This document shows positions 8,701 through 25,793 of a DNA stretch of 64,000 bases, in pieces. The translations under genes and the position numbers were made by a program. This DNA comes from a virus, in the IMG/VR virus record IMGVR_UViG_3300034101_006340, positions 96,001 to 160,000 of that record; one strand, 5' to 3'. How positions within the stretch are numbered: the stretch's first letter is position 1; every line of letters starts with the position of its first letter. A model generated the notes under the pieces. The model ran no database searches, was not told the DNA's origin, and worked only from the letters and a program-made list of their open reading frames with translations.

Positions 8701-11700
8701 AATAGTCTTGGCCAACCCAATCACCAATTCCACCATACCAATTCATCAATCTTGTTAATCCATCTCCTATCCAACTAAGAGTCATAGGATCAAAATATGG
8801 CATAGTACTATTTTCTGCCCTTAAATTAAACAAGTCATTTCCAAATTTTTGTATTAAATCTTTTCTGGTACTAGTTTGTGGAAATTCATTATACGGGTTA
8901 AAAATCAGTTTAACAAGATCATTAACATTGGCATTTTCTGGTAATGCAACAGATAAGTCACTAGCTGCTAGTTTGCCGTCTCGTCCAACGGTCTGGATCT
9001 TAGTTCCTTGAAGTTGTGTACTTATTAGGTTTTGCCAATCTCCGCTAAGAGCCATCGATCCAACCTTGCCGAATCTAGCTGAAGTACCATAGCTTCTGAA
9101 TACATCAGCTATATTTGCTTTCTGATCATAAAATTGTTTTAATAAAGACGTATTGCCTTGAGCTATATCAGCAAAAGCACCAGCTGCTCCACCTATCATT
9201 AGGTATGCATTATTTAACATATTAGCAGCTTGTGGACTATTAGCTTTTGGCATTAGTGCTTGGCTAATATAGCCACCAGCTTGATTAAATAATCCGCTCA
9301 TATAAGATGATGCATCTTTATAATTTCCAAGAGCAGCTACTCTCATGGCTTGAGTACCACCGTAATTAGCAACCCATCCTGTTGGCAACCCGCCTAAATT
9401 ATTAAATAACTGCATTGCTCCACGAATCATAAGTAAAGTTGCTTGTGTATTTTCTTTATCAGAAAAAACCTTGCCTTTAGTTATTGCGGAATTGTCTACT
9501 TTGGCTGCGGCCCCTGCCATCATAGTTTGTAGGCTCTGTAGTTTATCTACAAAAAAGTCCCCTATGGGAACACTGATAGCATTATCACTAAAACCAGCAA
9601 AAATATCTCTGCCTGCTGTACCAGCCCCACCCGGCACATCTAGGGCTTTTAACAAACCTACTGGACCACCTTTAAAACTTAATCTAACTAAATCCTTTAC
9701 CGCTTGTTGTTTAGCGGCATAATCTGGATCTTTATTTAGTTGCGCTTTTAATAAATCTGCAATTGCAGTACCCACATTTGGATCAGCTAAATTAGAATTA
9801 GCTAAAATATCTGCTCCTGTATATTTTTTATTTGTAAATAATCTAGATCTCTCTGTATCCAGTTGTTGGAACAGTGTTTTATCAATCTTATCAGGTAATA
9901 AATATGTAAAGGGTGCTCCAACAAATTCTTTTTTGGCACCATCAAATAATTTACCAGTATACTGAGTATATTGTACGGGTATGTCGATTCCTTGACCCAT
10001 ACCTACAGGTAAAACATCTCGAATATTGGCAGGTAAATCTAATTTAATTGGATCTGTTATAGTACTAGTTTTTATTCCGCTCTTATTTATAAGATCATCT
10101 AATGTTTGTTTAGAAGCCCTTTCTGCAAATCCTTTGCCTAAATATGTATCTATGGCGCCATTTACCATAAAAGGTAGTTCCGTTTCTCCTCCGTTAATAG
10201 TATCTGTAATCTTAAAACCTTCAGCTAATGTAAACTCATCCAATGGTCCTGCTAAACCAGGAATACCGAATTTAACTTTCTCCTTTGAAGCTTTAGCCTT
10301 ATTACTTCTTGCTAATTCAAGTCCTTTAATAAAGTCTGCTTCCATGCTTTTTTGTGCAACAGTAATAGCGCTGACATTTTGTAGTCCGTCGAATATAGAT
10401 AAATTTGTACCAATACTATCATTTGTAAGAGTTGCGCTTGGAATTGTATTACTAAATAATCCAAATAATATCTCTTGTAGTTTACTGCCCTCTTCTGTAT
10501 AATTAAGATTTCCTTTTAAGAATTCTCTAGTATTAATTAGTAATTCATTAAGCTTTGCATTTTCCACATTAGTTTCTGCTATTTTATCAGCTAAAATTAA
10601 ATCTAAACCTTGTCCTGTTGCTAATTCTGGATATTTAAGAACATTTGTTCCCACAATATTCCAGTCTCCAGAATAGTCTTTACCAAAATATGGACTTTCA
10701 GGTAAAAATTGAAGATTAGTTTTTGCTTTTGTGGCCGATGCCACAGCATGTGGTTTACCAGCACCCAGATACATGGCATATGTATCCTGTGTATAAACCC
10801 CAAGAGCGGGTCTACCAGAAAGCTCTTGACTATCAATAGGTACTTCTCCGGCCATAACTGGAGAACGACCTGTTTTATAGAATACTCCAGCAGATTTACC
10901 TTGTTTACTTGTTGTAATTTTATTAGTTGTTTGACTAAAAACATCTCCTTCTTTCAAAGGATCTCCAAAATTAGATGCATCTATCGTAGCAATAGGTAGA
11001 GTAACTGTTTCGATTCCAGCAAATTTTGTTTTGATACTTTCGGCTTTTTTTTCTGCGTCGTTTTTAGAAAGCTTATCAATTGTTTCTAAAGCAGGATCTT
11101 GGAAATATAACCTGTCGTCTGGTTTTGCTGGGCTCAGAGCACTAGCTCTATTCATTAAAGCATTATTGTGTTTGTAACTATATTCATAATCATTTCTTAC
11201 AATATCTGGAGTATATCCTGGAACTGGTGGACCAGGAATAATATTTGGAGAATCTAACCCATACCCCTCTTTTCCAGGAATTGCTGAGGCCATCATTTTA
11301 TAGGTAGATGTATAAACATCGGGCAGTGCAAATAATGGAGATGTGGCAATATCCCATGCTATTTTATTAGAATCTACGTCTTTAAGAATTGGTTTTTCTA
11401 AAGTCTGACCGGCTCCTAGTGTTTTATCACGATCTCCATAATTTGTAATGAAGCCTCCGGCAGCATAATAAGAGACTTTGCCTCCGTTGGCATAACCATT
11501 ATTAATGGATTGTAGTAATGGTAAATTAGCTTGGGTAGCTTTGCGATTAACAACAAATTCTCCAGGCGTCAGCATTGCTGGTACAGTATCCGTACCTCTT
11601 GGCTGGAAATTAACCATTTGTCCAGCAGATGCATATATCAATCCGCCTGTAGCAATTCCGGGTGCTGCTGGAGCTGCGCCGGGTGCTGGGGGCGGAGCTT

Positions 11701-14700
11701 TCATTATTGATACAATACTATTGACATTAGTAGCAATATCTCTAAGTTCTGCATTTTGAAAAGTTAAAACTGCTTGTTGTAATCCTTCAACTATAAGCTT
11801 GGCATTACTTTGAGCAATTCTATCTGCTAGCGTAGCATCAAGTTGTCCTAACAATCTAGTAGCTTGAGATTGTTCCACAATGGCCTGATTATAGTATTGA
11901 ATTGCTGCTGCTGTTGCTGGATCTTGTTCTGGATTACGTAGACTATTGAGCACTTGTTGCATTAGTGGGGATACTCCCATCCCAGCTTCTTGAAGCATCG
12001 TTTCTAAAACATTGGCTCTGACTTGATTACCTTGTTGGCTGTCTCCTAAAAATGGTAAAATATCCTGTAGTGCTCCGAGGGTTTCTTTTCTTTCATTGGC
12101 GAAAGCTGCTTGAGCTTCTCTCATAGCTTCTGTAGCGCTTGCTCCACTTTCCAATGCTTGTATATAAGCTCTTTGTGCTCCAATACTATTTTGTATAGTA
12201 TTTTGTTGTCCATTTATATTTCGCTGTAGTCTGATTAAGGCGTTGTTTGTTGATTCTAATTCATCTGGTGTAGCAGTAACTATTTTCTCTAAAAAGCTAA
12301 CTCTTCCAGCGGCTTTTTGTTGGGCTTGTTGAATAGCGTCCAAAGCAGCACTGGCTTTTTCAGTGTTATTGGCCATATCTTCTAGCGCGGCTCTGTTTTC
12401 TCTGAGTGCTATATTAGTATTTTTTAGTTCATTATTGAACTTAACAAAATCGGCTGCGCCAGCTAGCCCTTGCTCGGCACTCTGTCGTACACTAGATTGT
12501 TGCATTTGTCTAGTGGTATCCAAAGCCAAAAATTGATTAAAAATATCTGTTGGATCTGTTAATCCACCGGTCTGTCCAGCAACCTCCGCATCTCGTTTGG
12601 CAAAAGCGTCCGCAACCTTTATAGTTTTACCAAGAGCTTTAGCTAAATTTAAACTAGCGTCTGTAACAAGTTGTATAGATTTTCTAGACCGGTCTCTGGC
12701 GCTGACTTCTAGTTCTATAATACGATTAAGATTATTAGTATATTGATTTAAAACACTTTGATAATGTTCTAATGCTTTTATAACGCTTTGTTGTGCATTT
12801 TTGGCTACTTCTGTGACGCTTCCTAGTCCAGCAATTTTTTCAGATAGTTTTGCATAATCAACACTATCTTCGCCTTCCTTGCGTATATCAGTAATACTAT
12901 CTCCAACTTCTTTGGCTAGTTTATCAGCTAATTCTGGTGGCAAACCTAGATCTTTTAATGTTGTTTTTAAGTTTCTGTCAATAATTCTAGTTAATGCTTC
13001 ATTAGTAACATTTCCTCCTTGATCTCTAAGAGTATTATTTATAGTAGACATTACCGATGAAGTAATAGTCTCACCAAAAGTTGCTAACTGCGTCATCTCC
13101 GCTGATCTATTACCATATAAAGCTCCTCCAACAGAAGCAGCTCTTTGTACTTCGGGAGCGCTGTATGCTGTAGGATTTTGAATAATATTTTTTGCACCTA
13201 AATTAATATCCCCGGCCTGTGCTTGACCTTGAAATGCGGAAGTTGATAATTCAACGCTATTTTTCATCTTTTCTAAAGAAAATACCGTTGCATTAATGGC
13301 TTGATCCATATTATTGAACATACGTTGTAATGAACGAGTGTAAACACCAACAAGATTTCCAAAATTTTTCTGCGTTTTTTCTCTTAAGGCGGTTTCACTT
13401 CGTTCTCTTAACATAGCTGTTCCGGTTATAGAAATAAGATCCTTAATTCGAGCTTGTCTAGCTTCTTCCGTTAAAGATGTATCTAGTTCAATAGATCTTA
13501 TATGAGTAGCTAGTGAAGCATCTGCCATAACTAAACTTCTCTTAAAATCTTCTGCTTCTGGTCCACCTAAAATATCTTCTACAGATTCTCCTGCTTTGAT
13601 TCTAGAAACAATAACTTGATTAATATTTTCAGCAACAGGCTTAAAGATTGCTGCTGATTCACGACCACTGACTGCTGATGTTCTACCACGAATATTTTCT
13701 AGACCTTGTTGTCCAGCAAATAAGGTTTTCAAATATGGAATAATACCTTCTGTTTCTAAAATTTGTCCTCGTGCTGATGCTTGTCTAGAAGCAGTAATAT
13801 CACCAGAAAAGAAACTTTGTAGATTGGCTGATAGAACATCCAGGCCATTCACCAAACCAGCGGAAGCACTGTCTTGACTCATTTGCCGTTGTCTTTCAGC
13901 TGCTTGAGCTGCTGTAATAACTTTGCTCTGAAGTTCATTTCTTAAATCTATTTGATTAACATCTTTGTTAAGTTTTTCAAATCCTTCAGCCAATCCTTCT
14001 ATTGCTGTTTCGACTCTTTTTTTCTCTAATTCTATTGCAAAATTACGTACAGCATTGTATGCTTGTCGTGCTGCTTCCGCAACCACGGCCAATACTTGTA
14101 ATCTACCAGCTACTCTCCCTATAGTCCCTGCAAAGTTAGCCATCCTAGGATTAGTTGCACGAAGACTATCTGCCATATTAGTAGCTTCTTGTATCAATTG
14201 TTGGGTTGCTCCATAAGTTTGAGAAGCACCAGCTATTGCTCCACCAACACCCGCTTCTGTTGCGCTAGATTTTGTATTTAAAACATCTGCAACTAGAGTT
14301 CCAACGGTCATAATAGCCATATTACGCATTGTTCTGGCTTGATATTCTGCTCCTTGTACTGCTCCTGGAGAAGTCGCCCCTTCTGCTGCGGCAGTACCTT
14401 CTACCGCTCGTCTTCTAGCACTAATTTCTTCGTCTAATGCCGCTCGTCTTGCTCTTGCAGTATCCTCATCAATAGCACCAGAGGCCAAATCAGCTTCTAT
14501 TCGTTGTCTAGTGGTTTGAGTTAATCTTTGGTTCATTTGATCCAAAGTTCTGCTATCTCTAGCCAAGATCTGAAATACTCTAGCTAAATCATCTCCATCC
14601 GCTCCTAAAGCATCTAAGTCTATTGATGTTCCAGTAACACCGCCACCGAATGCTACAGTTTCATATGCTTGTCTTCTTCTATCGTTTTCTCCTGCTCTAA

Positions 14701-17700
14701 GTTCAGCTTGAACTTCTTCTTCGGTTCTAGCAACTCCGGTTGTTGCCGATGGGGTGGTTCTAAGAGTAGCTTCAGCAGCCGCTCTTGCTCTATCAACCTG
14801 CTGTTGTACAAGACCCAGAGCATCTTGTATAGCGGCGCCTGAAATATCTCCTAATTGTTGTCTTATAGCAATTTCATTTTGCGTTGCTGTTGTTGCTTGT
14901 TGCACAGCTGTTTCTAAATCGAATATAACATCCGCAGCAGCACCAGCTGCTCTTGCAGCGGCTAAATCTGCCTGAGCCGCTCTTTCTGCTTCTGCCGCCG
15001 TGGCTTGATAGCTCCTATTCAATAAAGCAGCAGATCTTGATCCATTAACTCCTAATGCTTGTAATGTTTCTGCTAATTGCGTTAATGCTGTGGTAGCTTG
15101 TGTACTAGCACCTATAGTTTCAGCGGAAACTGTGTCTGGTCGTGCGGCCGGGGCTCGTCGGCCTCGTCCTCCAAAAAAGAATTTCTGGATTCGTCCACCG
15201 TTATTAAATCCTAATGCTTCGGTAGCTTTCTTGCGAATAACAAAACTACCAACCTCAAGAGGTACTGGACCAAATGTGTCAGTATTACCAGAGCCAGGAA
15301 CGATACCAACTCCTCCACCACTAGCATATCTATCAGCATAATTCATTTTATTAAGTTTAGCATATCCTATGCTTTTAGCTAGTTTCGGCCCTATTACAGC
15401 TTCGCCGGGTGTTAATAATGCTGGAACATAACCCCCGTCTGCAAATCTGCTTAATGGTCCACCAATATTTTTCTTACTTAATTTCATTCCCATAGAACGA
15501 ATAATATTATCTACTTCCGCATCAGATACTTCGCTACCATAGCTATCTAATAAAGCATATAGAGTTTCTGATAATCCTGTTATACGTCCTTGATTTGGAA
15601 CAGCAGCTCCTTTTAATAATGCCTGATAGTCTGGCAAGGCTTTTTGTGCTTTAGATAATTTGCGTTGTATCGAAGCTTTTTCATCGGGATCAGTTTCTGA
15701 TGCCAGATCGTTTTGCAATTGGGATATGTATCCTGGGAAAGATTTTTGAATATGACTATCTATAGCTTGATCAAAAGATAATTGACCCGTCTTTTTAAAT
15801 GATCCTATGGCTTCTTCTGCTTGAGTATAAACTAAATTGCCTGCTTCGGCAGCGAGTGCGGCATTAGCCCGTGCTTCCCTAGCACTAGCCGCAGGTGTTT
15901 TAGTTGCTGTTGCTCGACCAAACGGCAGAATTTCTTCTATCTCAGAATACCATCCATCATATTGTTTTATTAAATCTGGTTTCAGTGCTTCAAAAGCATC
16001 TGGTTCAATATTATCAGGTATTTTTACTAATTTTTTACCCAAAGACATTCCTGCTCCACCAGATTCAAACACCCATTGCTGAATTTTTTGTGCATACTCT
16101 GCTAATGGTTTTGGTAATGGTACACCAAGATGATTTCCCCATCCAGGACCACCATATTCTCCGGCTTGGGCATATGCTTGCTCTGCAAATAATTCGTATT
16201 GTTTTGGTTCAAGAGGCACAAAACCTTTTGGTCCACGAGATCCTCGTCTAATATTTTTGGTAGATCTATCTTTAACACCTCCGGGAGAACCGTCTTCAAA
16301 GCCCTGTACTAATCCACCCAAATTAAATCTATCAGGATTTTCTGTAAAATATCTTTCAAACTCGCTTCTTGCTTTATCAAAAGCGCTGCCGTTTAATGTT
16401 CTCTTAACTTCTGTTTCTATATTAGATGGTAAATTAAATAAAGAGGCCGCATTACCAAGACCAGCGGGAAAATCTATGGCCCTAGTAGCTTCTAGAGCAT
16501 CTACGTTGATTTGATAGCCTAATTTTTGAGCTAACGCCTGTTCTAATAACGATCCCTCGATATTACCTTCACCAGTTTTGGTATACATTTTTTGATCATC
16601 AAAAGATTCTGGTTCTTGGTATCGATATGACTGAACTCCTTTTTTCTCTGCTGCTTTAATATTTTCTTCATTATCATCAATAAATTTTTCAATAGCTGCT
16701 AAATTAGCAGCTTTTCCTGCGGCAATATTTGTTCCAAGCCCTTTGCTTACGCCGGTAATATCGGTAGCTTGATATGGCAACCCGAATCTATTTAATGTGG
16801 CGGCAACTAAATCGGCTGTGGTTTGTGGTCTTGCTGTTAAAACCCTAGTAAGTCTTCTAACTATGCCTGGATTTTTTTGTTCAACCTCGGACAATCTTTG
16901 TGCAAGTCTTGAGGGCCTAGCTTTTGCTAAACTTGCTTCTACTTTATCTCTTAAAGAATAACTAGCAATATCTTCTTTACCGCTCTCATCGACCATTTTT
17001 GTTCCAAAAGCTAATGTTTCATCAAAATCTATAGCTAGTGGTCTAATTGGTCCAACAATTGGTGCTTCTGTTTGACTTAATGGTCCTAGTGCTTCTGTTG
17101 CTGTTGTATCTTTAGCAAAATCTAGACTGGCTTGTCTTTGTCTTTCTCTTAATTTTTTAACATCTCCTAGATACTGTTTACTAAATCCTCTAATCATTGC
17201 AGTATATTTTTGACCGTTCAATGGATTGTCTGGACCAAGATCTAGCGTCCATTCTTTATCACTGCTATAATCTATTGGTTGCAACCCTGCTATGGCTACT
17301 TTTCTTAATCCTCTTTTACGAGTTTTTTCGTCTGTATCAACTTGTTTAGCTTTATTCAAAATACCAGCGACAACCAAAGGATCAAGTCTGCCGGTAAGAA
17401 TACCGTCTTTTCTAAGTTTTCTTTGTAAATTAGAGGGAATAGCAACTCCACGATCCCGTATTCCTGCTTCATTACCAAGATCTGCTAATGTTTTTACTAA
17501 AGTGTCTGTTATAGCCTGTTGAATAGACTGATCTTGTTTTTTATTTTTGATAGCAATCTGACCAATTTCACCATATTGTTCTACTATTACAGGGTCTATC
17601 TCTTCTGTTTCTCCGCCAACAGCAAATTTTTGAATTAGTCCACCAAAAAATTTTTTCTTTTTGCCAGAATTCGCCTTGAACGATCCTCCTGCGCCTGTGA

Positions 17701-20002
17701 TTTTAGTAGCATCAGTAAATAGTCTCACGTTCCCTAATGGTATTGTGTTTATATTACTGTCTAATTGTGTATTTGCTAATTGTGATGCTAGTGGAGCTGC
17801 CGCCGGAGAATCTTGACTTCCTAATATAGATGATGCTATAATTTTTTTTCCTATTTCTTTTTCGGAAACTGATTCTTTATAGCTTTTAATTTCAACTGGT
17901 GCCCCAGATGTATCGATTCCGTCTAGTCTAGCATACCGATTAGATGATAAAGCAACCCCTTCAACATCTCTTACAACATTTTGAAAAGCGTCCCCTCTTT
18001 TTGTAGGGGAGCGGGTTTGCATATATGTTGTTATCGAAGGAAGTTCTTTGTATCTTTGATCATTCTGAAGCTCAGACACATCGATACTTTGTGGAACAAT
18101 ATTAAAATTAAACTTATCTTTTGGATTAAATCTATTGGGCTTAGATCCTCCAGCATTAAATGGTTTACCTGATTCTTTGTCTAATTGTGATCTATCTAAT
18201 TGCACTTGATTTAATAGTTGGCTATTGCCCGCATATTTTTGAATAGGCCCCCCATAAGCATATCTACGACTTCTAGACGAGTATAATTTACCGCCAGAAT
18301 TGAAGCCCTCAAGATTTTTTCTTCCTGCTCTAGCTACCCCTGCTTTACTCATCACAAATTCACCAGGAGTCAACATTGCCGGAACACTATCTCTATTTCC
18401 AACTCCAGGAACACTACCGCCCTTGGCAAACCCAATAATTCCACCCATATTTGCTCGTCGCCCACCAGTTCCCCTAAAACCTCCGCCAAAACCTCCGGCA
18501 AATTGAGTAATAGCGCTTACGCCTCTAAATGCTGCCATCACACCTATAAGTGGTAATAATCCTTTAGTGGCATCTGCGACTTTGATCAATGCACTAGCTA
18601 AATTTAATCCTATCTTTACCAAAGCTTGAAAAGATTGGCTCTCTCCAAAGGATCTCATTAAGGCAGAAAATTCTTCTCGTACTTTTTGGAATTGTACAGC
18701 AAGTGCTAGTTGTCCTTTTGCTGCTTCTGCCGCCAATGACCCCTGACCAGCTTGTGCAATTTTTAATGCTTCTTGCGCCGTTGCAAATTGTTGAATAAGT
18801 GGAAGCACTTTACCGATTTGTCGGAAACCACCAAGTTCTTCTACAATTTCACTAAATTTTAAGTCTCGTGGATCTAACCTTCCTAATCCATCTGCTAATC
18901 TTCTAACCGCTTCGTATGGACCAACGAATTTGCCTTCTAGATCTGTTAATGTGACTCCATATTCTTTAAGAGCTTCAATAGTGTCTGCTCTTTGAATACG
19001 AGTAAAAATAGTTCTTAAACCAGTAGCGATAGTTTCTGCGCTTTCACGAGTTGTGGCACGAACACTTGTGAAAACAGCAATAAATTCATTTAATGCATCT
19101 GTGCCTTGACTAACGCCATTACTAGCAGCAGCAAACACACCACCAGTACGCTGAATAGCGGTAATAAGATCACTAGCTTCAACAGCAAACGCAGCAGCAA
19201 CAGCATTGATAGATCCTAATGCTCCTTCTAATTGACCGGCGCTAATTCCGAACTGTCTCATTAAAGCAATACTACCTTCAACAGTTTCATTTAAACTATC
19301 AAACGATGGAGCTAATGCGCTTTTTGCTAAGGCTTCTAATGCTTTTCTGGTATCATTAGCGTTTAAACCAGCTTGAGCTAGTGTAACAGCAACATTTGCA
19401 ATATCTGATGATGCAACACCGAACCCTGTGGATAATCTTGTTATTTCACCAACTAGAGAGCCTAATCCTGCTTTGGTTTCATTGGTAACTTGTGTTAATC
19501 TTACTATTTGCCTATCAAATTCAATATATTGTTTAATGCCAGCAGACAAAGCATTGGTAAAACCATATATAACTGATGTAACGCTACTAAAAGCAGCAAA
19601 ACGTCTAACTGCTAATCCAGCTTGTCTACCGAAATCTTCAAATTCAGTACGGGTTTGTGCGACAGCTCTTGCAGCATTTGTTGCTGCGTTTGCTGTAACA
19701 TTAATTTGAGCTGGTATATTATTAGGCAATCTAATATTGCCAACGCTAGCCATTGCAGCCGCTAGATTATTGAATGCTGTTGTAGCATTAGTAGCGGATG
19801 CTGCCGTTTGGTTAAGAGTAGCACTTAATGCATTAAGTCTTGTGTTTAAATTACCAACATTTCTACTTACTCTTGGATCTATATTAACATTAACATTAGC
19901 ATTAATAGTACCTAGTTGTCTGCGAATATTAGAAACTACTTGTCTAATATTAGCTGGACCCCTAAGATTAATTTCAGCAGTAAGATTAAATCCTCTAGCC
20001 AT
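2777..20002 (-). CDS. Giant tape measure protein (5741 aa) with TP901-type core and multiple cargo modules
   Basis: N-terminal TMP core (EFDRQIVRLTQVT...VAVTLAQAG...INAVAAAFAVEASDLITAIQRTGG...ESAETIATGLRTIFTRI); Ala/Gln-rich helical stretches; TMP-typical GTDTVPAMLTPGEFVV motifs; located downstream of the tube and chaperone genes. Confidence 0.93.
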   Translation of the reverse strand: MARGFNLTAEINLRGPANIRQVVSNIRRQLGTINANVNVNIDPRVSRNVGNLNTRLNALSATLNQTAASATNATTAFNNLAAAMASVGNIRLPNNIPAQINVTANAATNAARAVAQTRTEFEDFGRQAGLAVRRFAAFSSVTSVIYGFTNALSAGIKQYIEFDRQIVRLTQVTNETKAGLGSLVGEITRLSTGFGVASSDIANVAVTLAQAGLNANDTRKALEALAKSALAPSFDSLNETVEGSIALMRQFGISAGQLEGALGSINAVAAAFAVEASDLITAIQRTGGVFAAASNGVSQGTDALNEFIAVFTSVRATTRESAETIATGLRTIFTRIQRADTIEALKEYGVTLTDLEGKFVGPYEAVRRLADGLGRLDPRDLKFSEIVEELGGFRQIGKVLPLIQQFATAQEALKIAQAGQGSLAAEAAKGQLALAVQFQKVREEFSALMRSFGESQSFQALVKIGLNLASALIKVADATKGLLPLIGVMAAFRGVSAITQFAGGFGGGFRGTGGRRANMGGIIGFAKGGSVPGVGNRDSVPAMLTPGEFVMSKAGVARAGRKNLEGFNSGGKLYSSRSRRYAYGGPIQKYAGNSQLLNQVQLDRSQLDKESGKPFNAGGSKPNRFNPKDKFNFNIVPQSIDVSELQNDQRYKELPSITTYMQTRSPTKRGDAFQNVVRDVEGVALSSNRYARLDGIDTSGAPVEIKSYKESVSEKEIGKKIIASSILGSQDSPAAAPLASQLANTQLDSNINTIPLGNVRLFTDATKITGAGGSFKANSGKKKKFFGGLIQKFAVGGETEEIDPVIVEQYGEIGQIAIKNKKQDQSIQQAITDTLVKTLADLGNEAGIRDRGVAIPSNLQRKLRKDGILTGRLDPLVVAGILNKAKQVDTDEKTRKRGLRKVAIAGLQPIDYSSDKEWTLDLGPDNPLNGQKYTAMIRGFSKQYLGDVKKLRERQRQASLDFAKDTTATEALGPLSQTEAPIVGPIRPLAIDFDETLAFGTKMVDESGKEDIASYSLRDKVEASLAKARPSRLAQRLSEVEQKNPGIVRRLTRVLTARPQTTADLVAATLNRFGLPYQATDITGVSKGLGTNIAAGKAANLAAIEKFIDDNEENIKAAEKKGVQSYRYQEPESFDDQKMYTKTGEGNIEGSLLEQALAQKLGYQINVDALEATRAIDFPAGLGNAASLFNLPSNIETEVKRTLNGSAFDKARSEFERYFTENPDRFNLGGLVQGFEDGSPGGVKDRSTKNIRRGSRGPKGFVPLEPKQYELFAEQAYAQAGEYGGPGWGNHLGVPLPKPLAEYAQKIQQWVFESGGAGMSLGKKLVKIPDNIEPDAFEALKPDLIKQYDGWYSEIEEILPFGRATATKTPAASAREARANAALAAEAGNLVYTQAEEAIGSFKKTGQLSFDQAIDSHIQKSFPGYISQLQNDLASETDPDEKASIQRKLSKAQKALPDYQALLKGAAVPNQGRITGLSETLYALLDSYGSEVSDAEVDNIIRSMGMKLSKKNIGGPLSRFADGGYVPALLTPGEAVIGPKLAKSIGYAKLNKMNYADRYASGGGVGIVPGSGNTDTFGPVPLEVGSFVIRKKATEALGFNNGGRIQKFFFGGRGRRAPAARPDTVSAETIGASTQATTALTQLAETLQALGVNGSRSAALLNRSYQATAAEAERAAQADLAAARAAGAAADVIFDLETAVQQATTATQNEIAIRQQLGDISGAAIQDALGLVQQQVDRARAAAEATLRTTPSATTGVARTEEEVQAELRAGENDRRRQAYETVAFGGGVTGTSIDLDALGADGDDLARVFQILARDSRTLDQMNQRLTQTTRQRIEADLASGAIDEDTARARRAALDEEISARRRAVEGTAAAEGATSPGAVQGAEYQARTMRNMAIMTVGTLVADVLNTKSSATEAGVGGAIAGASQTYGATQQLIQEATNMADSLRATNPRMANFAGTIGRVAGRLQVLAVVAEAARQAYNAVRNFAIELEKKRVETAIEGLAEGFEKLNKDVNQIDLRNELQSKVITAAQAAERQRQMSQDSASAGLVNGLDVLSANLQSFFSGDITASRQASARGQILETEGIIPYLKTLFAGQQGLENIRGRTSAVSGRESAAIFKPVAENINQVIVSRIKAGESVEDILGGPEAEDFKRSLVMADASLATHIRSIELDTSLTEEARQARIKDLISITGTAMLRERSETALREKTQKNFGNLVGVYTRSLQRMFNNMDQAINATVFSLEKMKNSVELSTSAFQGQAQAGDINLGAKNIIQNPTAYSAPEVQRAASVGGALYGNRSAEMTQLATFGETITSSVMSTINNTLRDQGGNVTNEALTRIIDRNLKTTLKDLGLPPELADKLAKEVGDSITDIRKEGEDSVDYAKLSEKIAGLGSVTEVAKNAQQSVIKALEHYQSVLNQYTNNLNRIIELEVSARDRSRKSIQLVTDASLNLAKALGKTIKVADAFAKRDAEVAGQTGGLTDPTDIFNQFLALDTTRQMQQSSVRQSAEQGLAGAADFVKFNNELKNTNIALRENRAALEDMANNTEKASAALDAIQQAQQKAAGRVSFLEKIVTATPDELESTNNALIRLQRNINGQQNTIQNSIGAQRAYIQALESGASATEAMREAQAAFANERKETLGALQDILPFLGDSQQGNQVRANVLETMLQEAGMGVSPLMQQVLNSLRNPEQDPATAAAIQYYNQAIVEQSQATRLLGQLDATLADRIAQSNAKLIVEGLQQAVLTFQNAELRDIATNVNSIVSIMKAPPPAPGAAPAAPGIATGGLIYASAGQMVNFQPRGTDTVPAMLTPGEFVVNRKATQANLPLLQSINNGYANGGKVSYYAAGGFITNYGDRDKTLGAGQTLEKPILKDVDSNKIAWDIATSPLFALPDVYTSTYKMMASAIPGKEGYGLDSPNIIPGPPVPGYTPDIVRNDYEYSYKHNNALMNRASALSPAKPDDRLYFQDPALETIDKLSKNDAEKKAESIKTKFAGIETVTLPIATIDASNFGDPLKEGDVFSQTTNKITTSKQGKSAGVFYKTGRSPVMAGEVPIDSQELSGRPALGVYTQDTYAMYLGAGKPHAVASATKAKTNLQFLPESPYFGKDYSGDWNIVGTNVLKYPELATGQGLDLILADKIAETNVENAKLNELLINTREFLKGNLNYTEEGSKLQEILFGLFSNTIPSATLTNDSIGTNLSIFDGLQNVSAITVAQKSMEADFIKGLELARSNKAKASKEKVKFGIPGLAGPLDEFTLAEGFKITDTINGGETELPFMVNGAIDTYLGKGFAERASKQTLDDLINKSGIKTSTITDPIKLDLPANIRDVLPVGMGQGIDIPVQYTQYTGKLFDGAKKEFVGAPFTYLLPDKIDKTLFQQLDTERSRLFTNKKYTGADILANSNLADPNVGTAIADLLKAQLNKDPDYAAKQQAVKDLVRLSFKGGPVGLLKALDVPGGAGTAGRDIFAGFSDNAISVPIGDFFVDKLQSLQTMMAGAAAKVDNSAITKGKVFSDKENTQATLLMIRGAMQLFNNLGGLPTGWVANYGGTQAMRVAALGNYKDASSYMSGLFNQAGGYISQALMPKANSPQAANMLNNAYLMIGGAAGAFADIAQGNTSLLKQFYDQKANIADVFRSYGTSARFGKVGSMALSGDWQNLISTQLQGTKIQTVGRDGKLAASDLSVALPENANVNDLVKLIFNPYNEFPQTSTRKDLIQKFGNDLFNLRAENSTMPYFDPMTLSWIGDGLTRLMNWYGGIGDWVGQDYFFDTKAQPDNAARMAEFIDSYNKAGQDIYQKAQEAQVLFGLANNLGPLPSLNWFTSRAAAMGLEKPQPLATGGVVYASTGKLINFQPRGTDTVPAMLTPGEFVVNRSATQKHLPLLQSINSGSTPNQYSQGGVVYLAEGSKQPVAASDSLKNSINKAIEVTMESPQPEGVQPDNLKQALINDILKDLSEAGSSSMAQVETQEGIRIQKDLLPGGKLSSNKIPRVQQFSTDIQTLIGLKKQFGRADAMLAGLNVAGGADSPIDSIDLTNILSKDLQTLSIINPYLDDSWWIGENIKELFSWAGTTNDRKEFQTDASDQVRSLGPKLDIWHDILSKRTDLKGIDQRIKDLRQEHENLPRWTPAKTTKPITDEIAYLINNKPKWKAKQPEYQQRKSLLEDLISLRNIAGSGSTAALEGLIDMNLGVQSTSAKELSELSQLGMLPEDIRDEGLRKGSQIGLRNLLLTAAVAAAAPIALPAAAVGATAAALGTAGITIAGSVGGIMAASAADELIKTEKEKLLEKQAGYKSSAGTAEMLFDIADVALGGGALAAGPAGRLISKTKIGKLLKDGRAKILTRKGATETVEQTAKAADEVGTPAKTQVVDPMQQQSKMAADKIKAFVDERKTLSESIIRRESDPDFTYPVDGNGNNFAPIDYANARLKALNQRIKDGSLDTISDVDIKTAAEADFISRGGWNSVPPNRLSIERIQGQADEIIAGRKSGGKGGGGSYTQEAKARLIELDEQLVRRGDAAQAKKAADRLRRNSQDTLDKIKAERAAAKTADDATAKAADDAGVKPLDDTATTVKGPETYYTKGMFAGRRAQKFTEAVKNAREIYEASTKKIGNEVVDLFYQSGSGSALKDAATKNLADLKNNTVFDQAFKDAIGKGANETSAIQKALGEVPDTTIQDTLTKIKNNGFDIDSSGNLVLNDQATKIMMDDSLGKQLYDTKVAAMRQRVLDDMANKAGAKKPSADYDNLVKGFDDSDFPGFKPRSWPQFVKDNAIAFRSNKKSRLSTGLTILAGILAVWQLMKQAQEIQDAGRDRPMTREPIPPPEEGKVPPGGPDIGQPEQEAPRPEDFKEEAKVQAEAKKAIERPNYYDELTYKEFASQQIVAGNMPPAPDKNLFTTTAFYSKDKQGSYRTTAYDQRSTMVDQSVRGNALGQAKGEAATRTAASQVHTRTAAFAPGGAPMDMRDVEDQEAVGFAQEAGKARRRGEAAPEAEGFTPVAKFGQPSGKEEDMRDRNWAIRAQAERGGRKITGGKSPQSQYKSSYGWWRNRLGEFTYYSTKNDKIRDRWRQGYNIKTSSRGNTSQLQVDPEQLSSGGVVYANTGMLIPYQPRGTDTVPAMLTPGEFVVNRAATQKHLPLLKAINSGQRAMSKGGVVYLQDGGIPNLDSVASAFDAIGAVQGEDLAKLKEQGDRAARARADAESNRQGFYQCVAEKKSRLERDAQSERAAVRAEEEAKMNPDDEDRAKNARQIRMDYSSRLREIMDGFRKTSLAREDEAMQSSGLGRKELLEASPRFKIENEFRREKGDINTIQADSPLIDAFKNAVTTLLNATNGGADAQNNLPNMYAVTVPGMDIFYRNAGVSQTYLDREKRSTKFVKLDQEEQIARFEDKKTKERELDAQIRAECAGDDPVLKDLANKQAAAFQKGAERRIADRAARAQNKAFGGLIYASTGTLVNYQPRGTDTVPAMLTPGEFVVNRKATQKNLGLLRSINSNSYSGGGTVYLKKGGQAYEDEMASRRQSYKDQMKERKDSYEAEMQRRRDAYSSSKTKGVSYQQAYAEQQQANPNAREQAMMGQQAQGGGPGGAPAISPQVQQAVGQASQAAFDPSSYGDVNKQMVIFGTLLTGVNQVLVQYGATITQLNQALAGGGGGGVNGNGEAAQGAGGAQGGLAGLATFAQKFDTFVQQLQQLNIPPEVNVNLVQNKPWDINVNGADALKALIEGPLGNIVQDAIRQWENSNKDSKEGQQ
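3587..3649 (-). repeat. TMP motif QPRGTDTVPAMLTPGEFVVNR, copy 4 (aa ~5452)
   Basis: Translated directly; 21 aa identical to the copies at 4637, 8384 and 11543. Confidence 0.95.
4637..4699 (-). repeat. TMP motif QPRGTDTVPAMLTPGEFVVNR, copy 3 (aa ~5102)
   Basis: Translated directly; identical peptide, different synonymous codons. Confidence 0.95.
8384..8446 (-). repeat. TMP motif QPRGTDTVPAMLTPGEFVVNR, copy 2 (aa ~3853)
   Basis: Translated directly; identical peptide, different synonymous codons. Confidence 0.95.
11543..11605 (-). repeat. TMP motif QPRGTDTVPAMLTPGEFVVNR, copy 1 (aa ~2800)
   Basis: Translated directly. Degenerate copies also occur at ~18350-18395 (DSVPAMLTPGEFVM) and ~15395-15435 (YVPALLTPGEAVI). 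Confidence 0.95.
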
Positions 20003-20092: not shown

Positions 20093-21004
20093 CTACGCAC
20101 TAGTAGCGCTAACCGGCTCGGAAACTGGAGTTGGCTCAGTGCTAGGCGTTTCATTTGTAGCAACTTTTTCTTCCTTATTAGAAATTACAGGTTGTGGGAC
20201 TGTTTCCTCTTCAAAAACAACTGGATTGCCATTATCGTCTAAAAATGGTTGAGCATCAACAACATATTCACCAGCCTCATCAACTTGATTACCGTCTCTA
20301 TCTACAAACTCACCAGCCTCATTAATATATCGACCTTGTTCGTCTATTAGTCTACCTTCGCCGTCAACGGTACGACCCTTTTTATCAATAAATCGTAAAT
20401 CATCATTTACAAACTTGTATTTCTTTAAGAATTTATTTTCTGGTAAATTCTTTTCAAAGTTATTATCTAATCCATAAATCATATTAGCCAATTTTTGAGC
20501 ACCCGAAAGAGCCACAGGATCATCTATGCGACTCATATAGTCTTCAAGGCTTTCAAAATACTTTTTATCACTATCTTTATACACCACACAAGCACTAACT
20601 AAATAATTAAATCTAGCATTATCAGCTTGACCTTCGGCGCTATGGTTGTCTAAACTAGTACGAACGCTAATAAGTTCTCGGATCTTATTTCTTACTTCTC
20701 TCATTCGAATAGCTAGCTTCTTAGCTTCACTAAGTGAAAAACCACCTTTAGCCAGTTTTCGCTCTCCGTCTAATAGTTCTTTCTGAAGACTAGTATATTC
20801 TTGCTGCTTTTCAGTATTCCATAAACCCTGATCTTGCAGTAAGTCGTCCATCTTTGCCCTTACAACGCTTTTGCTCTTAATAGCGTCTGTAAAAGCTTGA
20901 TTATATACTTTTTGTCCTTCTCTTTGATCTACTAATGATGGAGATCTAACTGTGAAAGTCTTTTCTTCACCATTAACTACTACTTTGAAATCCTCGGTCT
21001 TCAT
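20093..21004 (-). CDS. Probable tail assembly chaperone (303 aa)
   Basis: Immediately upstream of the TMP; acidic/helical; AGGAG RBS; C-terminal D-x-x-G repeats and a Pro/Glu/Thr tail. Confidence 0.6.
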   Translation of the reverse strand: MKTEDFKVVVNGEEKTFTVRSPSLVDQREGQKVYNQAFTDAIKSKSVVRAKMDDLLQDQGLWNTEKQQEYTSLQKELLDGERKLAKGGFSLSEAKKLAIRMREVRNKIRELISVRTSLDNHSAEGQADNARFNYLVSACVVYKDSDKKYFESLEDYMSRIDDPVALSGAQKLANMIYGLDNNFEKNLPENKFLKKYKFVNDDLRFIDKKGRTVDGEGRLIDEQGRYINEAGEFVDRDGNQVDEAGEYVVDAQPFLDDNGNPVVFEEETVPQPVISNKEEKVATNETPSTEPTPVSEPVSATSA

Positions 21005-21015
21005 AAAGGTCTCCT

Positions 21016-21366
21016 TTAGTTTTTCTTAGAATTATTACATTGACAGTTTCGTGAACATGATTTAGAATCTTCTGGTGCAACGGGGAACTTGTATGAGTAT
21101 CTTTGTTTGATACTTCCTTCTCCCCACTTATCAAAATCTTCTTTTGCATTTCTTATTTGAGAATTACCCTGATTTAATATTTGGTTGCGTGTTCTTTCCC
21201 AATCATCAGCAAAAGCTAATTGTTCTGCCGTAAGAGGTTCTTCTTCATCTAAAAAATGACCCCATAAATGTCCAAAGTTTTCTTCAAATCTACTAAGGGC
21301 TCCAATCATAATAGTTTGCATTCTTTTTTCAACATAGTATCGAAGTCTATCAGATTCCATTGACAT
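21016..21366 (-). CDS. Hypothetical protein in tail operon (116 aa)
   Basis: Own GGAAGG RBS, tightly packed with neighbours; no recognised motif. Confidence 0.75.
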   Translation of the reverse strand: MSMESDRLRYYVEKRMQTIMIGALSRFEENFGHLWGHFLDEEEPLTAEQLAFADDWERTRNQILNQGNSQIRNAKEDFDKWGEGSIKQRYSYKFPVAPEDSKSCSRNCQCNNSKKN

Positions 21367-21380
21367 AAAATTTTCCTTCC

Positions 21381-22424
21381 TTATCTCTTAGTATTAAGTT
21401 TTTGTAATTGTGTCCTTAAGTCTTGTTGAACATCTGGTAATTGAGCGTCTTTGATCGATCCTTGTGCGCTTAATACAGTATCCATTTTTTGTTTTAGTTT
21501 ATTTGCGCTTTCTATCGAATTCAATCCAATAATATCCTGAACTTGTTCTTGATTATTAGCCATCAAGAACACCTCGTTAGCCTTTCCAATTTTTCCAGTC
21601 AACATATTATTTACACCTTTTTCATTTTTTTGTTGTTTATTTGATCTTGATTGTGTGATCATCCATCCTTCCAAAGCATCATCATCATCTATAATTTCTT
21701 TATTCGGACATTCTGGATGTTCATATATTCTATCATACATTAAAGAAACACTTAGTATACCTTTTTGCTCTTCCGTTAATTCACTAGCGCTATATGGAAA
21801 AAGATGTAATTTATTAACAGTATAATAATTTCTCCAACAATCACTACGAGCAACTAATTTAATCTGGCTGAGATCTAATAAATTTTTACTAATTTCTGCT
21901 GTAATATTATCAAATAAAATATTATCTATATCATTAATATCAAAAACTAAATCATCAGTATGAAAATGATATAAACTATTACATATAATAAAAGCGTGTT
22001 TAATATTGCTGCAATAGTTTTCTAGTGTTAAAAAATCTAATAGATGTTTTGATGATAATAACTGACTATATCTAGTAACCAATGAAGATAATTGTTTTTT
22101 TATATTTTGTCTTTTGGTTCTATCAAAAAAATTTTGAAATAGTTCAACTTTAGAATTTTCTATTTTTTTTTCTATTGAAACTAAATCCCCAGAAAATTGA
22201 GGATATAATATGCCTAATTCGTAAAGCATACTTTCTATATCATCAGAACCTAAAAAAGATTCAGAATATAAATTATCTTCATATGCTATCTGATATTTTA
22301 ATGCGGCTTCAAGTTTAATGTCCGTTGAAGCTGGACGCAATTCGTAAATATTATTATCTAGGCATAAAATTTGCTTACCAGATAGTATCCTGATAACAGT
22401 GTTTTCTAATTCCTGTTGATTCAC
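21381..22424 (-). CDS. Tail-chaperone-like protein (347 aa), N-terminal half paralogous to 20093-21004
   Basis: GTG start overlaps the upstream TGA. Manual alignment to the 303-aa protein (LRPAS/VRSPS, AYED/AFTD, LGI/QGL, LD...E...N). Confidence 0.55.
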   Translation of the reverse strand: MNQQELENTVIRILSGKQILCLDNNIYELRPASTDIKLEAALKYQIAYEDNLYSESFLGSDDIESMLYELGILYPQFSGDLVSIEKKIENSKVELFQNFFDRTKRQNIKKQLSSLVTRYSQLLSSKHLLDFLTLENYCSNIKHAFIICNSLYHFHTDDLVFDINDIDNILFDNITAEISKNLLDLSQIKLVARSDCWRNYYTVNKLHLFPYSASELTEEQKGILSVSLMYDRIYEHPECPNKEIIDDDDALEGWMITQSRSNKQQKNEKGVNNMLTGKIGKANEVFLMANNQEQVQDIIGLNSIESANKLKQKMDTVLSAQGSIKDAQLPDVQQDLRTQLQKLNTKR

Positions 22425-22573
22425 TTCTCGATCTGCTTGCTAATGATAGATTGCTGAATTTCAGCAATTTCCTTATCTCTATTACTAACTTGTTTTTGAA
22501 GCTCATTAATAATTTTTTGAGCTTGAATTAGATCAATATAAAGTCTACCTACTATCGCTAGTAGTTCGTCCAT
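22421..22573 (-). CDS. Small coiled-coil protein (50 aa), below the ORF-track cutoff
   Basis: AGGAAGG RBS, then MDELLAIVGRLYIDLIQAQKIINELQKQVSNRDKEIAEIQQSIISKQIEK*; its stop overlaps the next start (GTGA). Confidence 0.75.
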   Translation of the reverse strand: MDELLAIVGRLYIDLIQAQKIINELQKQVSNRDKEIAEIQQSIISKQIEK

Positions 22574-22630
22574 AACTATCCTTCCTTTGTGGTCTTAAAA
22601 TTTATCTATTAACTTAATTTATAAGCTAAA

Positions 22631-23647
22631 TTAGGTTAATGGGAAAGCTACTGAGTCTTCAACAATATCCGAAAAAGATACGCCGGTTGGTGCAGTATAT
22701 GTGAAATCGTTGAAGGTTTGATAGCTATAAGTAATTGAGGCATTACCACCGCCGGTATCACCACCGGTATAGTTAACACTAGTAAGCTTATTCTTACTAC
22801 CAAGATCAATTACTGTACCATCACATAGCACAATCTTAATCTGCTTGTTAGCAAGTGCTTTGGGATTTGAACATGCAGCAGCAGCCTGTTCAGCACCTAC
22901 CATATCGCCAGTGTGAGCAACAATTTCAATTTCGCAAGTAACTTCTACGGGGAAGTTCACATAACGATAAAATGGTGTTCTTTGACCAAGATCAAAGATG
23001 CTCTCACGACCAAGGTTCATACTAACAGTAACATTCTGAACCCTCGAACCTGCTGGAAGTCCACCGCTGCCTGCCGATGGTAAAATAGTAGATGAGTTAT
23101 TCCATAAGTTTCTGCGTAGAATACCCTGACCAATCGGTGTGCTAGCAGCTAAGAATGTGCCGCTATTACTTTCCGGACTTGTTGCCCAAAGTTTATCGTT
23201 ACTAACTAGAGTAACTTCTTCTGTAAAATTACCCTCTGTTGGGAAAGTATATGTTACAGAACTTAGGTAGGCCGGTACGCAAGTAACTTGAGCAAGTGGG
23301 GTTCCAACAGCAGTAGTATTTGTGTCGGGGAAAAGATTGAGTCTAACACCACATCTGTGATTAGACAAAGCGCTTAACGTTCCTGTACCCATTGTCATAG
23401 CGTACAATGTTGGGGAACCGTCAAGAACCTTATTTAGAGTCACTTCGACTTCTGGAATTTCTTCGTAGTTATCATAAAGCTCAAGTTGACCAAGCTGATA
23501 AACCGGTTCAAGATTGAAATTAGTTGTCATACCAACACTTTGTAAACCCTGAACAGAGTCCCATGCGGCATTCTGAGTATTTCCAACGCCCGATGGTCCG
23601 TTAATTTGCACATTTTGACAGGCGTAATAGATTCTATTGTTGGCCAT
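22631..23647 (-). CDS. Major tail tube protein (338 aa), internally duplicated
   Basis: Located after the terminator-like gene; beta-rich; two similar halves (VQGLQSVGMTTNFNLEPVYQLGQ / VQNVTVSMNLGRESIFDLGQ; YLSSVTYT / KLTSVNYT); GGAG RBS. Confidence 0.8.
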   Translation of the reverse strand: MANNRIYYACQNVQINGPSGVGNTQNAAWDSVQGLQSVGMTTNFNLEPVYQLGQLELYDNYEEIPEVEVTLNKVLDGSPTLYAMTMGTGTLSALSNHRCGVRLNLFPDTNTTAVGTPLAQVTCVPAYLSSVTYTFPTEGNFTEEVTLVSNDKLWATSPESNSGTFLAASTPIGQGILRRNLWNNSSTILPSAGSGGLPAGSRVQNVTVSMNLGRESIFDLGQRTPFYRYVNFPVEVTCEIEIVAHTGDMVGAEQAAAACSNPKALANKQIKIVLCDGTVIDLGSKNKLTSVNYTGGDTGGGNASITYSYQTFNDFTYTAPTGVSFSDIVEDSVAFPLT

Positions 23648-23674
23648 AATTTTTTCTCCGATTTAGCGGTTAAA

Positions 23675-24631
23675 CTAGATAATAACTTGAGCGGTTAATC
23701 TTAATGTACACCAATATAAATTTTTATTTGCGCTTTCCATATCTAATACACTAATTTCCTTAAAAAAACAATTGTTCCAGTAATACTTGTCAATTAATTC
23801 ACCATAACAAAGTCCACTAATATTAATTGATCCATTATATAATAGTGGAAAAACTCCACTTTGAACAATTTTATTGGTATCATACAACTTAATAGTTTTA
23901 TCTTTTTGTAGTCTAAGAATATCTACTATTCTATTATTATCATTAGGATTTTCAGTAAAAATATGTAATAAGATATCTTGATCGATGGCAAAATCATAAG
24001 CCCCAAGTTGCCAAGGCTGAGAATAACTTCTTGCAATTGGTTCAATAACAATAGCAGGCATTTGTATTCTATGGGATGCCCCAATGTTGTATTCTCCTGA
24101 TGCTTTTTGATTAAGGGCTGGTAGTGGTTGATAAGTTGATGCTTGTAGTTCTTTCCATTGTGGAGTATTGGATCCTTTGTAGACTTGGCACCATTTATAA
24201 GAATAAGATGCTACCACACTAGAAGATGAATTTACAACGCGATCAAAAACTATTTGACCAAGAGGATAATTAATAGTATAGCTATAATTACCGCTACCTG
24301 TTGGCGCAGCATAGAAGGCATTATTAACATAAAGTCCAGAGAATTTTATTGGATTATAACTGTTATAATTTATTCCTGTTTCCCACACCCAGTCTTTTCT
24401 AAAGCTTTGCCATATCTGACCATCTTTATATCCGGGTTGAGTTGTACTTTTGAGTTGACTAAAATTACCACCATATAATCCGGATGTTGGACTGCTAATA
24501 TTTATGAATCCACCAATATTTAAGAACCCCCAATCTAAAAAAGTTTTTAAATTATCTTCTAATTGATTAATTAAATAATTTTGTCCTAAATTTGATACAT
24601 TATTAAATGTGTTAGTGCTTTCGCAACTCAT
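23675..24631 (-). CDS. Probable tail terminator/tail completion protein (318 aa)
   Basis: Position directly before the tube gene; MPAIVIE...QDILLHIFTENPNDNNRIVDIL pattern typical of terminator folds. Confidence 0.55.
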   Translation of the reverse strand: MSCESTNTFNNVSNLGQNYLINQLEDNLKTFLDWGFLNIGGFINISSPTSGLYGGNFSQLKSTTQPGYKDGQIWQSFRKDWVWETGINYNSYNPIKFSGLYVNNAFYAAPTGSGNYSYTINYPLGQIVFDRVVNSSSSVVASYSYKWCQVYKGSNTPQWKELQASTYQPLPALNQKASGEYNIGASHRIQMPAIVIEPIARSYSQPWQLGAYDFAIDQDILLHIFTENPNDNNRIVDILRLQKDKTIKLYDTNKIVQSGVFPLLYNGSINISGLCYGELIDKYYWNNCFFKEISVLDMESANKNLYWCTLRLTAQVII

Positions 24632-25275
24632 ATGTGTTTCTCCAATTCTTTTTCTATGTCATTAAGAAGTATCGGATCTAGCCTGTCTATAGCTCTTGTG
24701 ATCCAGTTATTATTTACTGTGCCAGCAAATTCTGATGGTACTCTCCAATTTTGTTTTTCCGACGATATCATAATAGCATTACCGGTACGAGATCTTGAGT
24801 TGGGTCCAAACTGAACAGCATAATCTCTAATTAAAATTTTTGATCCGTCAAGCAATAGCCATTGTAACCATGGAATTACTGAACCACTAATATCATCGGT
24901 TATTGTAGCTGTTGATAAAGATAAAATATCGGAAAAATCCGATCTAATCATATCAATAGAAAAACCTCCAGTAACGCCTCGTGAGGATATTCTTAATGGT
25001 GTGGATCTAATTACCATACTGCTGGTCCAAGCCGTAAATAATGATTCTATGCGACTAGCGGCATCAGGAACACCAAGCTCAGATCGAAGTTGTCCACTAA
25101 GCAACGAATTGTATTCTGGTTCACCCATTAATACGGCTTTGGTTTTATTGGGAATAATGGTTTGTAAAGCTCTTTGTGCTTTATCAAAAGCTGGTTGTAG
25201 ATAATCTCTTATAGCATCTAATATTTTAGAGCGTATTTGACTATCACTATCTATTAATTGTAAACCTATTCTCAT
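24628..25275 (-). CDS. Probable neck/tail completion protein (HK97 gp10-like position)
   Basis: Synteny between head-closure and terminator genes. Start moved to the ATGA overlap at 25275 (MRIGLQL). Confidence 0.5.
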   Translation of the reverse strand: MRIGLQLIDSDSQIRSKILDAIRDYLQPAFDKAQRALQTIIPNKTKAVLMGEPEYNSLLSGQLRSELGVPDAASRIESLFTAWTSSMVIRSTPLRISSRGVTGGFSIDMIRSDFSDILSLSTATITDDISGSVIPWLQWLLLDGSKILIRDYAVQFGPNSRSRTGNAIMISSEKQNWRVPSEFAGTVNNNWITRAIDRLDPILLNDIEKELEKHI

Positions 25276-25793
25276 ATAATTTTTTCCCACATAGTAATAA
25301 TATATCTATTACTTCCTAAACCACAAATTTCTGGTTCATTAACTCTAGTATATCTACGATCTCCATATGCTGAAGTGGTTGTGTCAAATATAATTTCTCT
25401 AGCATTTTGTAATTTAGGCAATAAGTTTATATTACAGATAGATTGTGCCATATTATTAGGAATATTAACTGTTTTAGAATTCCAGTTAAACCAATATTTA
25501 CTATCAAAAATTAAAGCTAGATAAACTGTTTCGTCTGCGCTCATATCAATAAGACCGTTGCCTCCGCAGATTGGACAAATACTGTGATTTGGAAAAGGGG
25601 CCACACCTGTTCCATTATATAGATTTGCGGATCTGTTTTGCATAGGATCAAACTTGCAATTATTACAAAGCTGTTGTTTTAAAGAATCATAAACTATGGA
25701 GCATGGTACCGCAAGACCGTTTTTACCAATAAGATTATCTATTGCATCATTAAAGATATTTTTAAAATTGTTATTGATTATATTTTCAAACAT
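25272..25793 (-). CDS. Probable head closure/head-tail adaptor (173 aa) with Cys pairs
   Basis: Synteny and size; CNNC and CPICGGNG motifs; C-terminal YTRVNEPEICGLG beta pattern. Confidence 0.5.
   Translation of the reverse strand: MFENIINNNFKNIFNDAIDNLIGKNGLAVPCSIVYDSLKQQLCNNCKFDPMQNRSANLYNGTGVAPFPNHSICPICGGNGLIDMSADETVYLALIFDSKYWFNWNSKTVNIPNNMAQSICNINLLPKLQNAREIIFDTTTSAYGDRRYTRVNEPEICGLGSNRYIITMWEKII

Follow-up and report, generated by a model that had tools for sequence, protein, structure and literature searches.

Tape measure proteins (TMPs) are usually viewed as rulers that carry, at most, a cell-wall hydrolase, and the enzymes known to be embedded in them are the peptidoglycan hydrolase motifs of mycobacteriophage TMPs and of T5 pb2. 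Enzyme-bearing TMPs are thus a known kind, as are phage nucleotidases and 3'-phosphatases of the HAD superfamily. The deoxynucleoside-5'-monophosphatase Dmp of phage T5 (PF26880) is the product of one of the T5 host-shutdown pre-early genes (PMC4319617), and for T4 Pnkp the catalytic roles of residues D165, D167, S211, K258, and D278 are defined (PMC3592404). The locus described here lies in a 64,000-nucleotide stretch of DNA (the window) that forms the minus-strand half of IMG/VR virus record IMGVR_UViG_3300034101_006340, a 128,328-bp record from an uncultured phage with an estimated completeness of 91%. In the window, a giant TMP contains a HAD-fold domain of phosphatase type at amino acids 986 to 1133. 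The reading that we favor, by a slight preference when it is taken as a whole and its substrate class is included, is that this domain is an active phosphatase that is delivered with the TMP and acts on a nucleotide or nucleic-acid phosphate. The TMP, the domain, and its motifs are located in the window as follows.

2777 to 20002, minus strand: giant TMP, a single uninterrupted open reading frame (ORF) of 5,741 amino acids

18866 to 19444, minus strand: PhageMin_Tail (PF10145) core of the TMP, amino acids 187 to 379 (E value of 5.7e-25; 88.8 bits against a cutoff of 33.2)

16604 to 17047, minus strand: HAD-fold putative phosphatase domain, amino acids 986 to 1133, defined by its motifs, family alignment, and predicted fold

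17015 to 17029, minus strand: motif I, D992-F-D994-E-T996, with the putative nucleophile Asp and acid/base Asp (D18, D20, T22, and L23 invariant in the 25-domain alignment)

16829 to 16837, minus strand: motif II, T1056-A-R1058 (L-T-A-R invariant in the 25-domain alignment)

16712 to 16714, minus strand: motif III, K1097 (K123 invariant in the 25-domain alignment and the sole invariant column in a more divergent alignment)

16673 to 16678, minus strand: motif IV, D1109-D1110 (near-invariant in the 25-domain alignment, the single exception being a truncated fragment)

An earlier note on this DNA had proposed a complete HAD domain embedded in the TMP, and the proposal was borne out by the motifs, by a HAD Rossmannoid fold in structure prediction and Foldseek searches, and by matches to TMP families in Pfam (PF10145) and PHROG. 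The residue numbers given there (D992, D994, T996, T1056, K1097, D1109, and D1110) proved exact on the translation of the ORF, in which window coordinates 16620 to 17045 correspond to amino acids 986 to 1128. Only one site among the 5,741 residues has DxDx[TV] preceded by a hydrophobic stretch. In the core family alignment, which comprises 25 HAD domains at 29 to 77% identity, the motifs are invariant or nearly so, and a chance occurrence of the motifs was thereby ruled out. Among related giant TMPs, DxDxT was kept in 123 of 124 domains, [ST][AG]R also in 123, and DD in 122. When 1.84 billion representatives were searched exhaustively by phmmer, 80 clusters with the HAD domain were obtained; the motif set was present in every one of the 80 cluster representatives, nearly all of which were proteins of 1,900 to 7,900 amino acids with the domain at about residue 900 to 2,400. 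A further 31 related loci came from IMG/VR, on contigs of 33 to 238 kb, and the recurrence of related giant ORFs on many independent contigs ruled out an assembly artifact. One relative, a TMP of 7,122 amino acids, has two HAD cassettes, at amino acids 2288 to 2448 and 3489 to 3656, both with intact motifs.

The same counts bear on whether the domain is catalytic at all. A catalytically inert structural or spacer domain, giving the TMP extra bulk or a surface for docking, would be compatible with the lack of a HAD domain in about half of the close relatives and with the failure of any curated HAD model to score above threshold. All four catalytic motifs, however, were kept in 122 to 123 of the 124 domains while identity dropped to about 30%, a pattern that indicates selection on the active site, and we consider an inert domain very improbable. 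Judged from these alignments, the HAD active site built into the TMP is intact and under purifying selection. The second Asp of motif I is also said, in an account attributed to Burroughs and coworkers in 2006, to mark phosphatases as opposed to dehalogenases or P-type ATPases. On the strength of its motifs and its modeled structure, the segment from amino acid 986 to 1133 is very probably an active phosphatase enzyme.

Modeling of the domain by AlphaFold2 with the alignment of 25 relatives gave five beta-alpha units, a predicted local distance difference test (pLDDT) score of 86.4, and a predicted template modeling (pTM) score of 0.81; the single-sequence model was unusable, with a pLDDT of 39. 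The model has the Rossmannoid alpha/beta core that marks HAD enzymes (five parallel strands, with a flap behind the first), with strands at model residues 15 to 18, 78 to 82, 108 to 110, 132 to 135, and 150 to 153. A Foldseek search had been suggested beforehand as the check on this fold, and in the PDB every match at an E value of ≤1e-3 was a HAD enzyme, so the outcome that would have spoken against the domain, absence of a HAD fold, did not occur. Structural matches in BFVD were rich in PNKP-phosphatase-domain proteins, and the nearest named ESM Atlas cluster was that of PF26880 T5_dNMPase/PF25109 HAD_PNKP (template modeling scores of 0.63/0.69). The nearest structural relatives were the 3'-phosphatase of T4 Pnkp, the RNA-repair enzyme Pnkp1, deoxyribonucleotidases, and AphA, and the Pnkp phosphatase domain (PDB 5uj0 and 1ltq) was among the closest matches. 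Polynucleotide 3'-phosphatases, RNA-repair enzymes, and deoxyribonucleotidases are also the classes that the motifs alone had suggested in the earlier note. We regard the HAD fold as virtually certain, and both it and the phosphatase-type DxD signature can be taken as established to the extent that computation on sequence and model allows.

Matches at the sequence level pointed to the same enzymes. The deoxyribonucleotidase family phrog_2643 was matched by 11 of the 25 family members (best E value, 6e-6), and the polynucleotide kinase family phrog_415 was matched by 8 (best E value, 3.5e-5) and by the window domain itself (E value, 9e-4), for which it was the sole hint from the sequence libraries. 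Matches of the 25 members to Pfam and NCBIfam models were weak, mostly within the HAD clan, and all below threshold (PF06189, 0.0058; TIGR01681, 0.009; PF12710, 0.13). In searches of PDB sequences, the window domain gave no HAD match by phmmer, and the 25-domain family profile matched nothing.

The identity of the host protein follows from its N-terminal part. In addition to the PF10145 core, amino acids 1 to 620 match 17 PHROG families, 16 of which are tail-length tape measure families (best E value, 8e-31), and these matches together identify the 5,741-amino-acid protein as a TMP; its relatives are annotated as TP901-family TMPs. There are at least 654 giant homologs of its first 600 amino acids, at 55 to 77% identity. 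Pairwise BLAST comparison with close N-terminal relatives divided the protein into a conserved core (amino acids 1 to 580), a conserved body (about 1500 to 2860), and a variable stretch between them. The TMP is also punctuated by a P-[AG]-[ML]-L-T-P-G-E module, common to most relatives and present in six copies in the window protein, at amino acids 541, 1527, 2808, 3861, 5110, and 5460. Four of the six copies sit inside a near-identical unit of about 50 amino acids, GG.[VI]Y...QPRGTDTVPAMLTPGEFVVNR.ATQ..L.LL.SIN, and the modules could be linkers or processing sites.

The HAD domain falls in the variable stretch, between two conserved elements.

15503 to 18205, minus strand: variable cargo region of the TMP, amino acids about 600 to 1500 (coverage profile against 80 relatives; pairwise BLAST shows the stretch replaced)

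17108 to 17317, minus strand: conserved pre-element, amino acids about 896 to 965, beta-rich by sequence, VAIAGLxP...W.L...IRGF (hidden Markov model [HMM] built from relatives)

16346 to 16573, minus strand: post-HAD module, amino acids 1144 to 1219, IEG..E...IDFP.GLG...[ED]xKR...E..RY (own alignment of its members)

Within this region, the HAD domain is an optional cassette of a widespread giant-TMP family, a feature that the earlier note does not mention. The gap between the pre-element and the post-HAD module was 160 to 184 amino acids in TMPs with the domain (n = 62) and 19 to 25 amino acids in TMPs without it (n = 14), a difference that defines a clean domain insertion of about 145 amino acids. 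The pre-element HMM matched 76 of 181 giants, and its motif was also visible in HAD-less TMPs. The post-HAD module stood directly after the HAD domain in 119 of the 122 HAD-bearing TMPs and occurred alone in 26. By eye, the HAD domain seems to interrupt a single conserved unit made up of pre-element and post-HAD module. In the module, residues E, D, GLG, (E/D)xKR, and E..RY are invariant, a pattern that looks PD-(D/E)xK-like on inspection, and the module gave no match in the PDB profile search, Pfam (18 members), PHROG, or the ESM Atlas.

Among TMPs sampled by N-terminal similarity, 62 of 121 carried the HAD domain (the TMP of the window included); of the 91 among them that had not been selected via the domain, 33 carried it. 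On a FastTree phylogeny of the N-terminal part, the distribution required at least 22 changes, compared with 40.4 ± 2.8 for shuffled labels, with the reservation that the histories of the N-terminus and of the variable region may differ; fewer changes than in the shuffled sets, yet still many, imply that the domain is inherited within clades but has often been gained, lost, or recombined. Other domains also occur in relatives. One HAD-bearing TMP has a Pfam ADPrib_exo_Tox domain (ADP-ribosyltransferase exoenzyme) in the variable region, at amino acids 1538 to 1653 (31.6 bits; cutoff, 23.4), EF-hand domains, PF28597, or PF03983 are present in other relatives, and one relative bears the annotation thermonuclease. 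The ADP-ribosyltransferase, EF-hand, and thermonuclease cases fit a reading of the variable region as a cargo slot.

The closest described enzymes can be compared with the domain residue by residue. With T5 Dmp, the sequence of which was taken from the T5 record, it shares a DxDxT motif I, a T-A-R motif II, an hIDD motif IV, and a spacing of 64 amino acids between the nucleophile and motif II (46 in T4 Pnkp), together with the cap signature G-x-x-D-[IL]-x-x-Y, which was aligned by hhalign. The spacing between motifs II and IV differs, at 74 amino acids in Dmp and 53 in the TMP domain, and Dmp is a free protein of 244 amino acids made from first-step-transfer DNA, whereas the TMP domain is part of a virion protein; Dmp works, and the TMP domain would work, at the outset of infection. 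The family HMM scored 9 bits on T5 Dmp, and a Pfam scan of the 25 family members gave no PF26880 match. In the comparison with T4 Pnkp, D165, D167, S211, K258, and D278 map onto D992, D994, T1056, K1097, and D1110, and motif I was aligned by hhalign (D165/D167/T169 with D992/D994/T996). Motif II has the form [ST]-x-R in both proteins, with S211-G-R213 of Pnkp, like T86-A-R of T5 Dmp, paralleling T1056-A-R1058. Pnkp differs in having a P-loop 5'-kinase fused to its phosphatase and in partnering an RNA ligase. AphA, a class B acid phosphatase (PDB 1z5g and 2b82), is a secreted periplasmic homotetramer of enterobacteria, and no sequence-level match was found between it and the TMP domain.

If the domain works like T4 Pnkp, the aspartyl-phosphate intermediate would form on D992, and D994 would be the general acid/base; the phosphate would be held by T1056 and K1097, and Mg2+ would be bound by D1109 and D1110 together with D992. 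The proposed substrate is a 3'-phosphate end or, as for T5 Dmp, a mononucleotide. We lean toward a nucleotide or nucleic-acid phosphate as the substrate class; within it, a mononucleotide is a tentative choice and a polynucleotide 3' end a somewhat more doubtful one. The HAD domain probably works together with the post-HAD module. A different substrate is conceivable, namely a phosphoprotein, in which case the domain would be a small-cap HAD like the C-terminal-domain (CTD) phosphatases, MDP-1, and the Legionella effector Lem4 and would reverse host protein phosphorylation, for example, in kinase-based defense or signaling. The HAD effector domain of Lem4, MDP-1, and HAD-IIIC models do appear among the weaker matches, motifs I and II are separated by a small insert, as is general in HADs with macromolecular substrates, and a signaling target would suit a low copy number. 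Those matches, however, rank below the Pnkp, AphA, and deoxynucleoside monophosphatase clusters, and the Arg of motif II (TAR) is common to T4 Pnkp and T5 Dmp, so that a protein phosphatase is improbable.

Delivery is proposed from the position of the domain. A TMP is carried in the tail tube and would exit the virion immediately before the DNA; as part of the TMP, the HAD domain would travel in the tail, come out with it, and enter the host pre-made. In lambda gpH and T5 pb2, the N-terminal part of the TMP is head-proximal and exits last. By this analogy the HAD domain, which lies in the N-terminal part, would be head-proximal and would exit last, beside the DNA end, in the part likeliest to reach the cytoplasm. 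Delivery with the TMP is, on these grounds, reasonably likely. The same position bears on the idea of a phosphatase of the envelope or periplasm, comparable to AphA, acting while the TMP crosses the envelope on a lipid-linked, lipopolysaccharide, or nucleotide phosphate and thereby aiding channel formation. We give this idea a low probability: the domain sits in the N-terminal fifth, at the end that would leave last, the substrates of AphA are themselves nucleotides, and no signal or lipid-binding feature was found.

Several results weigh against a delivered nucleotide or nucleic-acid phosphatase. With regard to Dmp, hhalign against the single T5 sequence gave a probability of only 29%, BLASTP gave no alignment, and the Dmp-type cap signature was present in only 65 of the 124 TMP-family domains. 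With regard to T4 Pnkp, hhalign against the single sequence (PseT) gave a probability of 6.8%, with only motif I aligned, at 15% identity. No curated HAD model in Pfam or NCBIfam matched the window's own sequence at an E value of ≤1. The 128-kb record contained no match to an Rnl2-type ligase (PF09414), an AAA_33 kinase (PF13671), or RtcB (PF01139) in searches with positive controls; a genome search with PF09511 (Rnl1), whose own control stayed unmatched, carries no weight here. A virion holds few TMP copies, and disposal of deoxynucleoside monophosphates (dNMPs) in bulk, in the manner of T5, by an ejected protein is therefore implausible. A globular domain of about 4 nm, present in triplicate, cannot sit side by side in the lumen of the tail tube and must be staggered or refolded after ejection.

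These results narrow the favored reading in three ways. Because the Dmp matches are not significant and the cap signature is found in little more than half of the domains, we assign the domain to a new HAD subfamily, whose closest neighbors are the Dmp, Pnkp, and AphA nucleotide and nucleic-acid phosphomonoesterases, and file it in none of them. Because the kinase, the Rnl2-type ligase, and RtcB are missing from the record, a full T4-style RNA-repair set in this phage is unlikely; of the RNA-repair flavor proposed in the earlier note, the structural likeness to Pnkp1 holds and the role in RNA repair is weakened. Bulk dNMP disposal, finally, is feasible only if the HAD domain also works in the producer cell and is otherwise hard to reconcile with the copy number. 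A producer-cell enzyme is itself an alternative, in which the HAD domain of an abundant late TMP acts on nucleotides before, or independently of, assembly. Late expression would supply the many copies that a Dmp-like bulk nucleotidase needs. Free-standing copies, on the other hand, are very rare: only 4 of the 80 representatives are shorter than 1,000 amino acids (78, 162, 420, and 810), of which at least the 78-amino-acid one is a fragment, and a length-restricted homolog search returned two fragments only. This rarity argues that linkage to the TMP is a selected feature. In addition, the slot region is shared with the ADP-ribosyltransferase exoenzyme domain of the relative described above, a typical effector cargo. 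There is accordingly only a small chance that the domain serves the producer cell in this way, and delivery with the TMP remains the preferred reading.

The genes around the TMP are poorly recognizable. Seven ORFs of 116 to 347 amino acids lie directly upstream (20093 to 25793, minus strand) and have no PHROG or Pfam match at an E value of ≤1e-3, which indicates that the tail tube, chaperone, and head genes are unrecognizable by sequence in this lineage. The only proteins in the neighborhood that match PHROG or Pfam are fibre-like, at 25829 to 30777. One of them, an ORF of 792 amino acids at 25829 to 28207 (minus strand), has fn3, Mtd_N (major tropism determinant N-terminal), and YHYH domains and is a candidate fibre or receptor-binding protein; given its Mtd_N domain, one may ask whether it is the target of a diversity-generating retroelement. 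On the minus strand at 34658 to 48817 lies another giant ORF, which encodes 4,719 amino acids and has no PDB sequence match at an E value of ≤1e-3.

If the domain is ejected and active, the tape measure would double as a vehicle for pre-made host-modifying enzymes. The uncultured family concerned is large, with at least 654 giant TMP clusters and contigs of up to about 235 kb. The conserved phosphatase domain is present in roughly half of the nearest relatives, and in some the variable region also houses an ADP-ribosyltransferase-like domain. The HAD domain moreover represents a subfamily that goes undetected in current Pfam, NCBIfam, and PDB sequence searches. A bolder and, in our view, unlikely extension would make the variable region a slot system for virion-delivered effectors, with the HAD domain in a nuclease-like module as a novel type of first-minute counter-defense or DNA-entry enzyme that processes the incoming genome ends or destroys a phosphorylated host immune nucleotide before phage gene expression.

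According to the earlier note, HAD domains are not known as TMP cargo, and in keeping with this, a full-text search of 8.4 million papers and preprints found no published description of a TMP with a HAD or phosphatase domain. Nor did tblastn find the HAD domain in 50,697 GenBank phage records when the window domain, the free-standing relative of 420 amino acids, and a relative of 2,797 amino acids were used as queries; the matches were to the TMP N-terminal core only. The TMPs of mycobacteriophages and T5 pb2 resemble the present protein in having an enzyme domain built into the tape measure and presumed to be active after ejection, and they differ in their cargo, which attacks the cell wall, whereas the cargo here is a phosphatase-type domain. 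If the favored reading is true, the giant TMP would be to phages what effectors are to secretion systems, and a counterpart of the capsid-borne Alt of T4.

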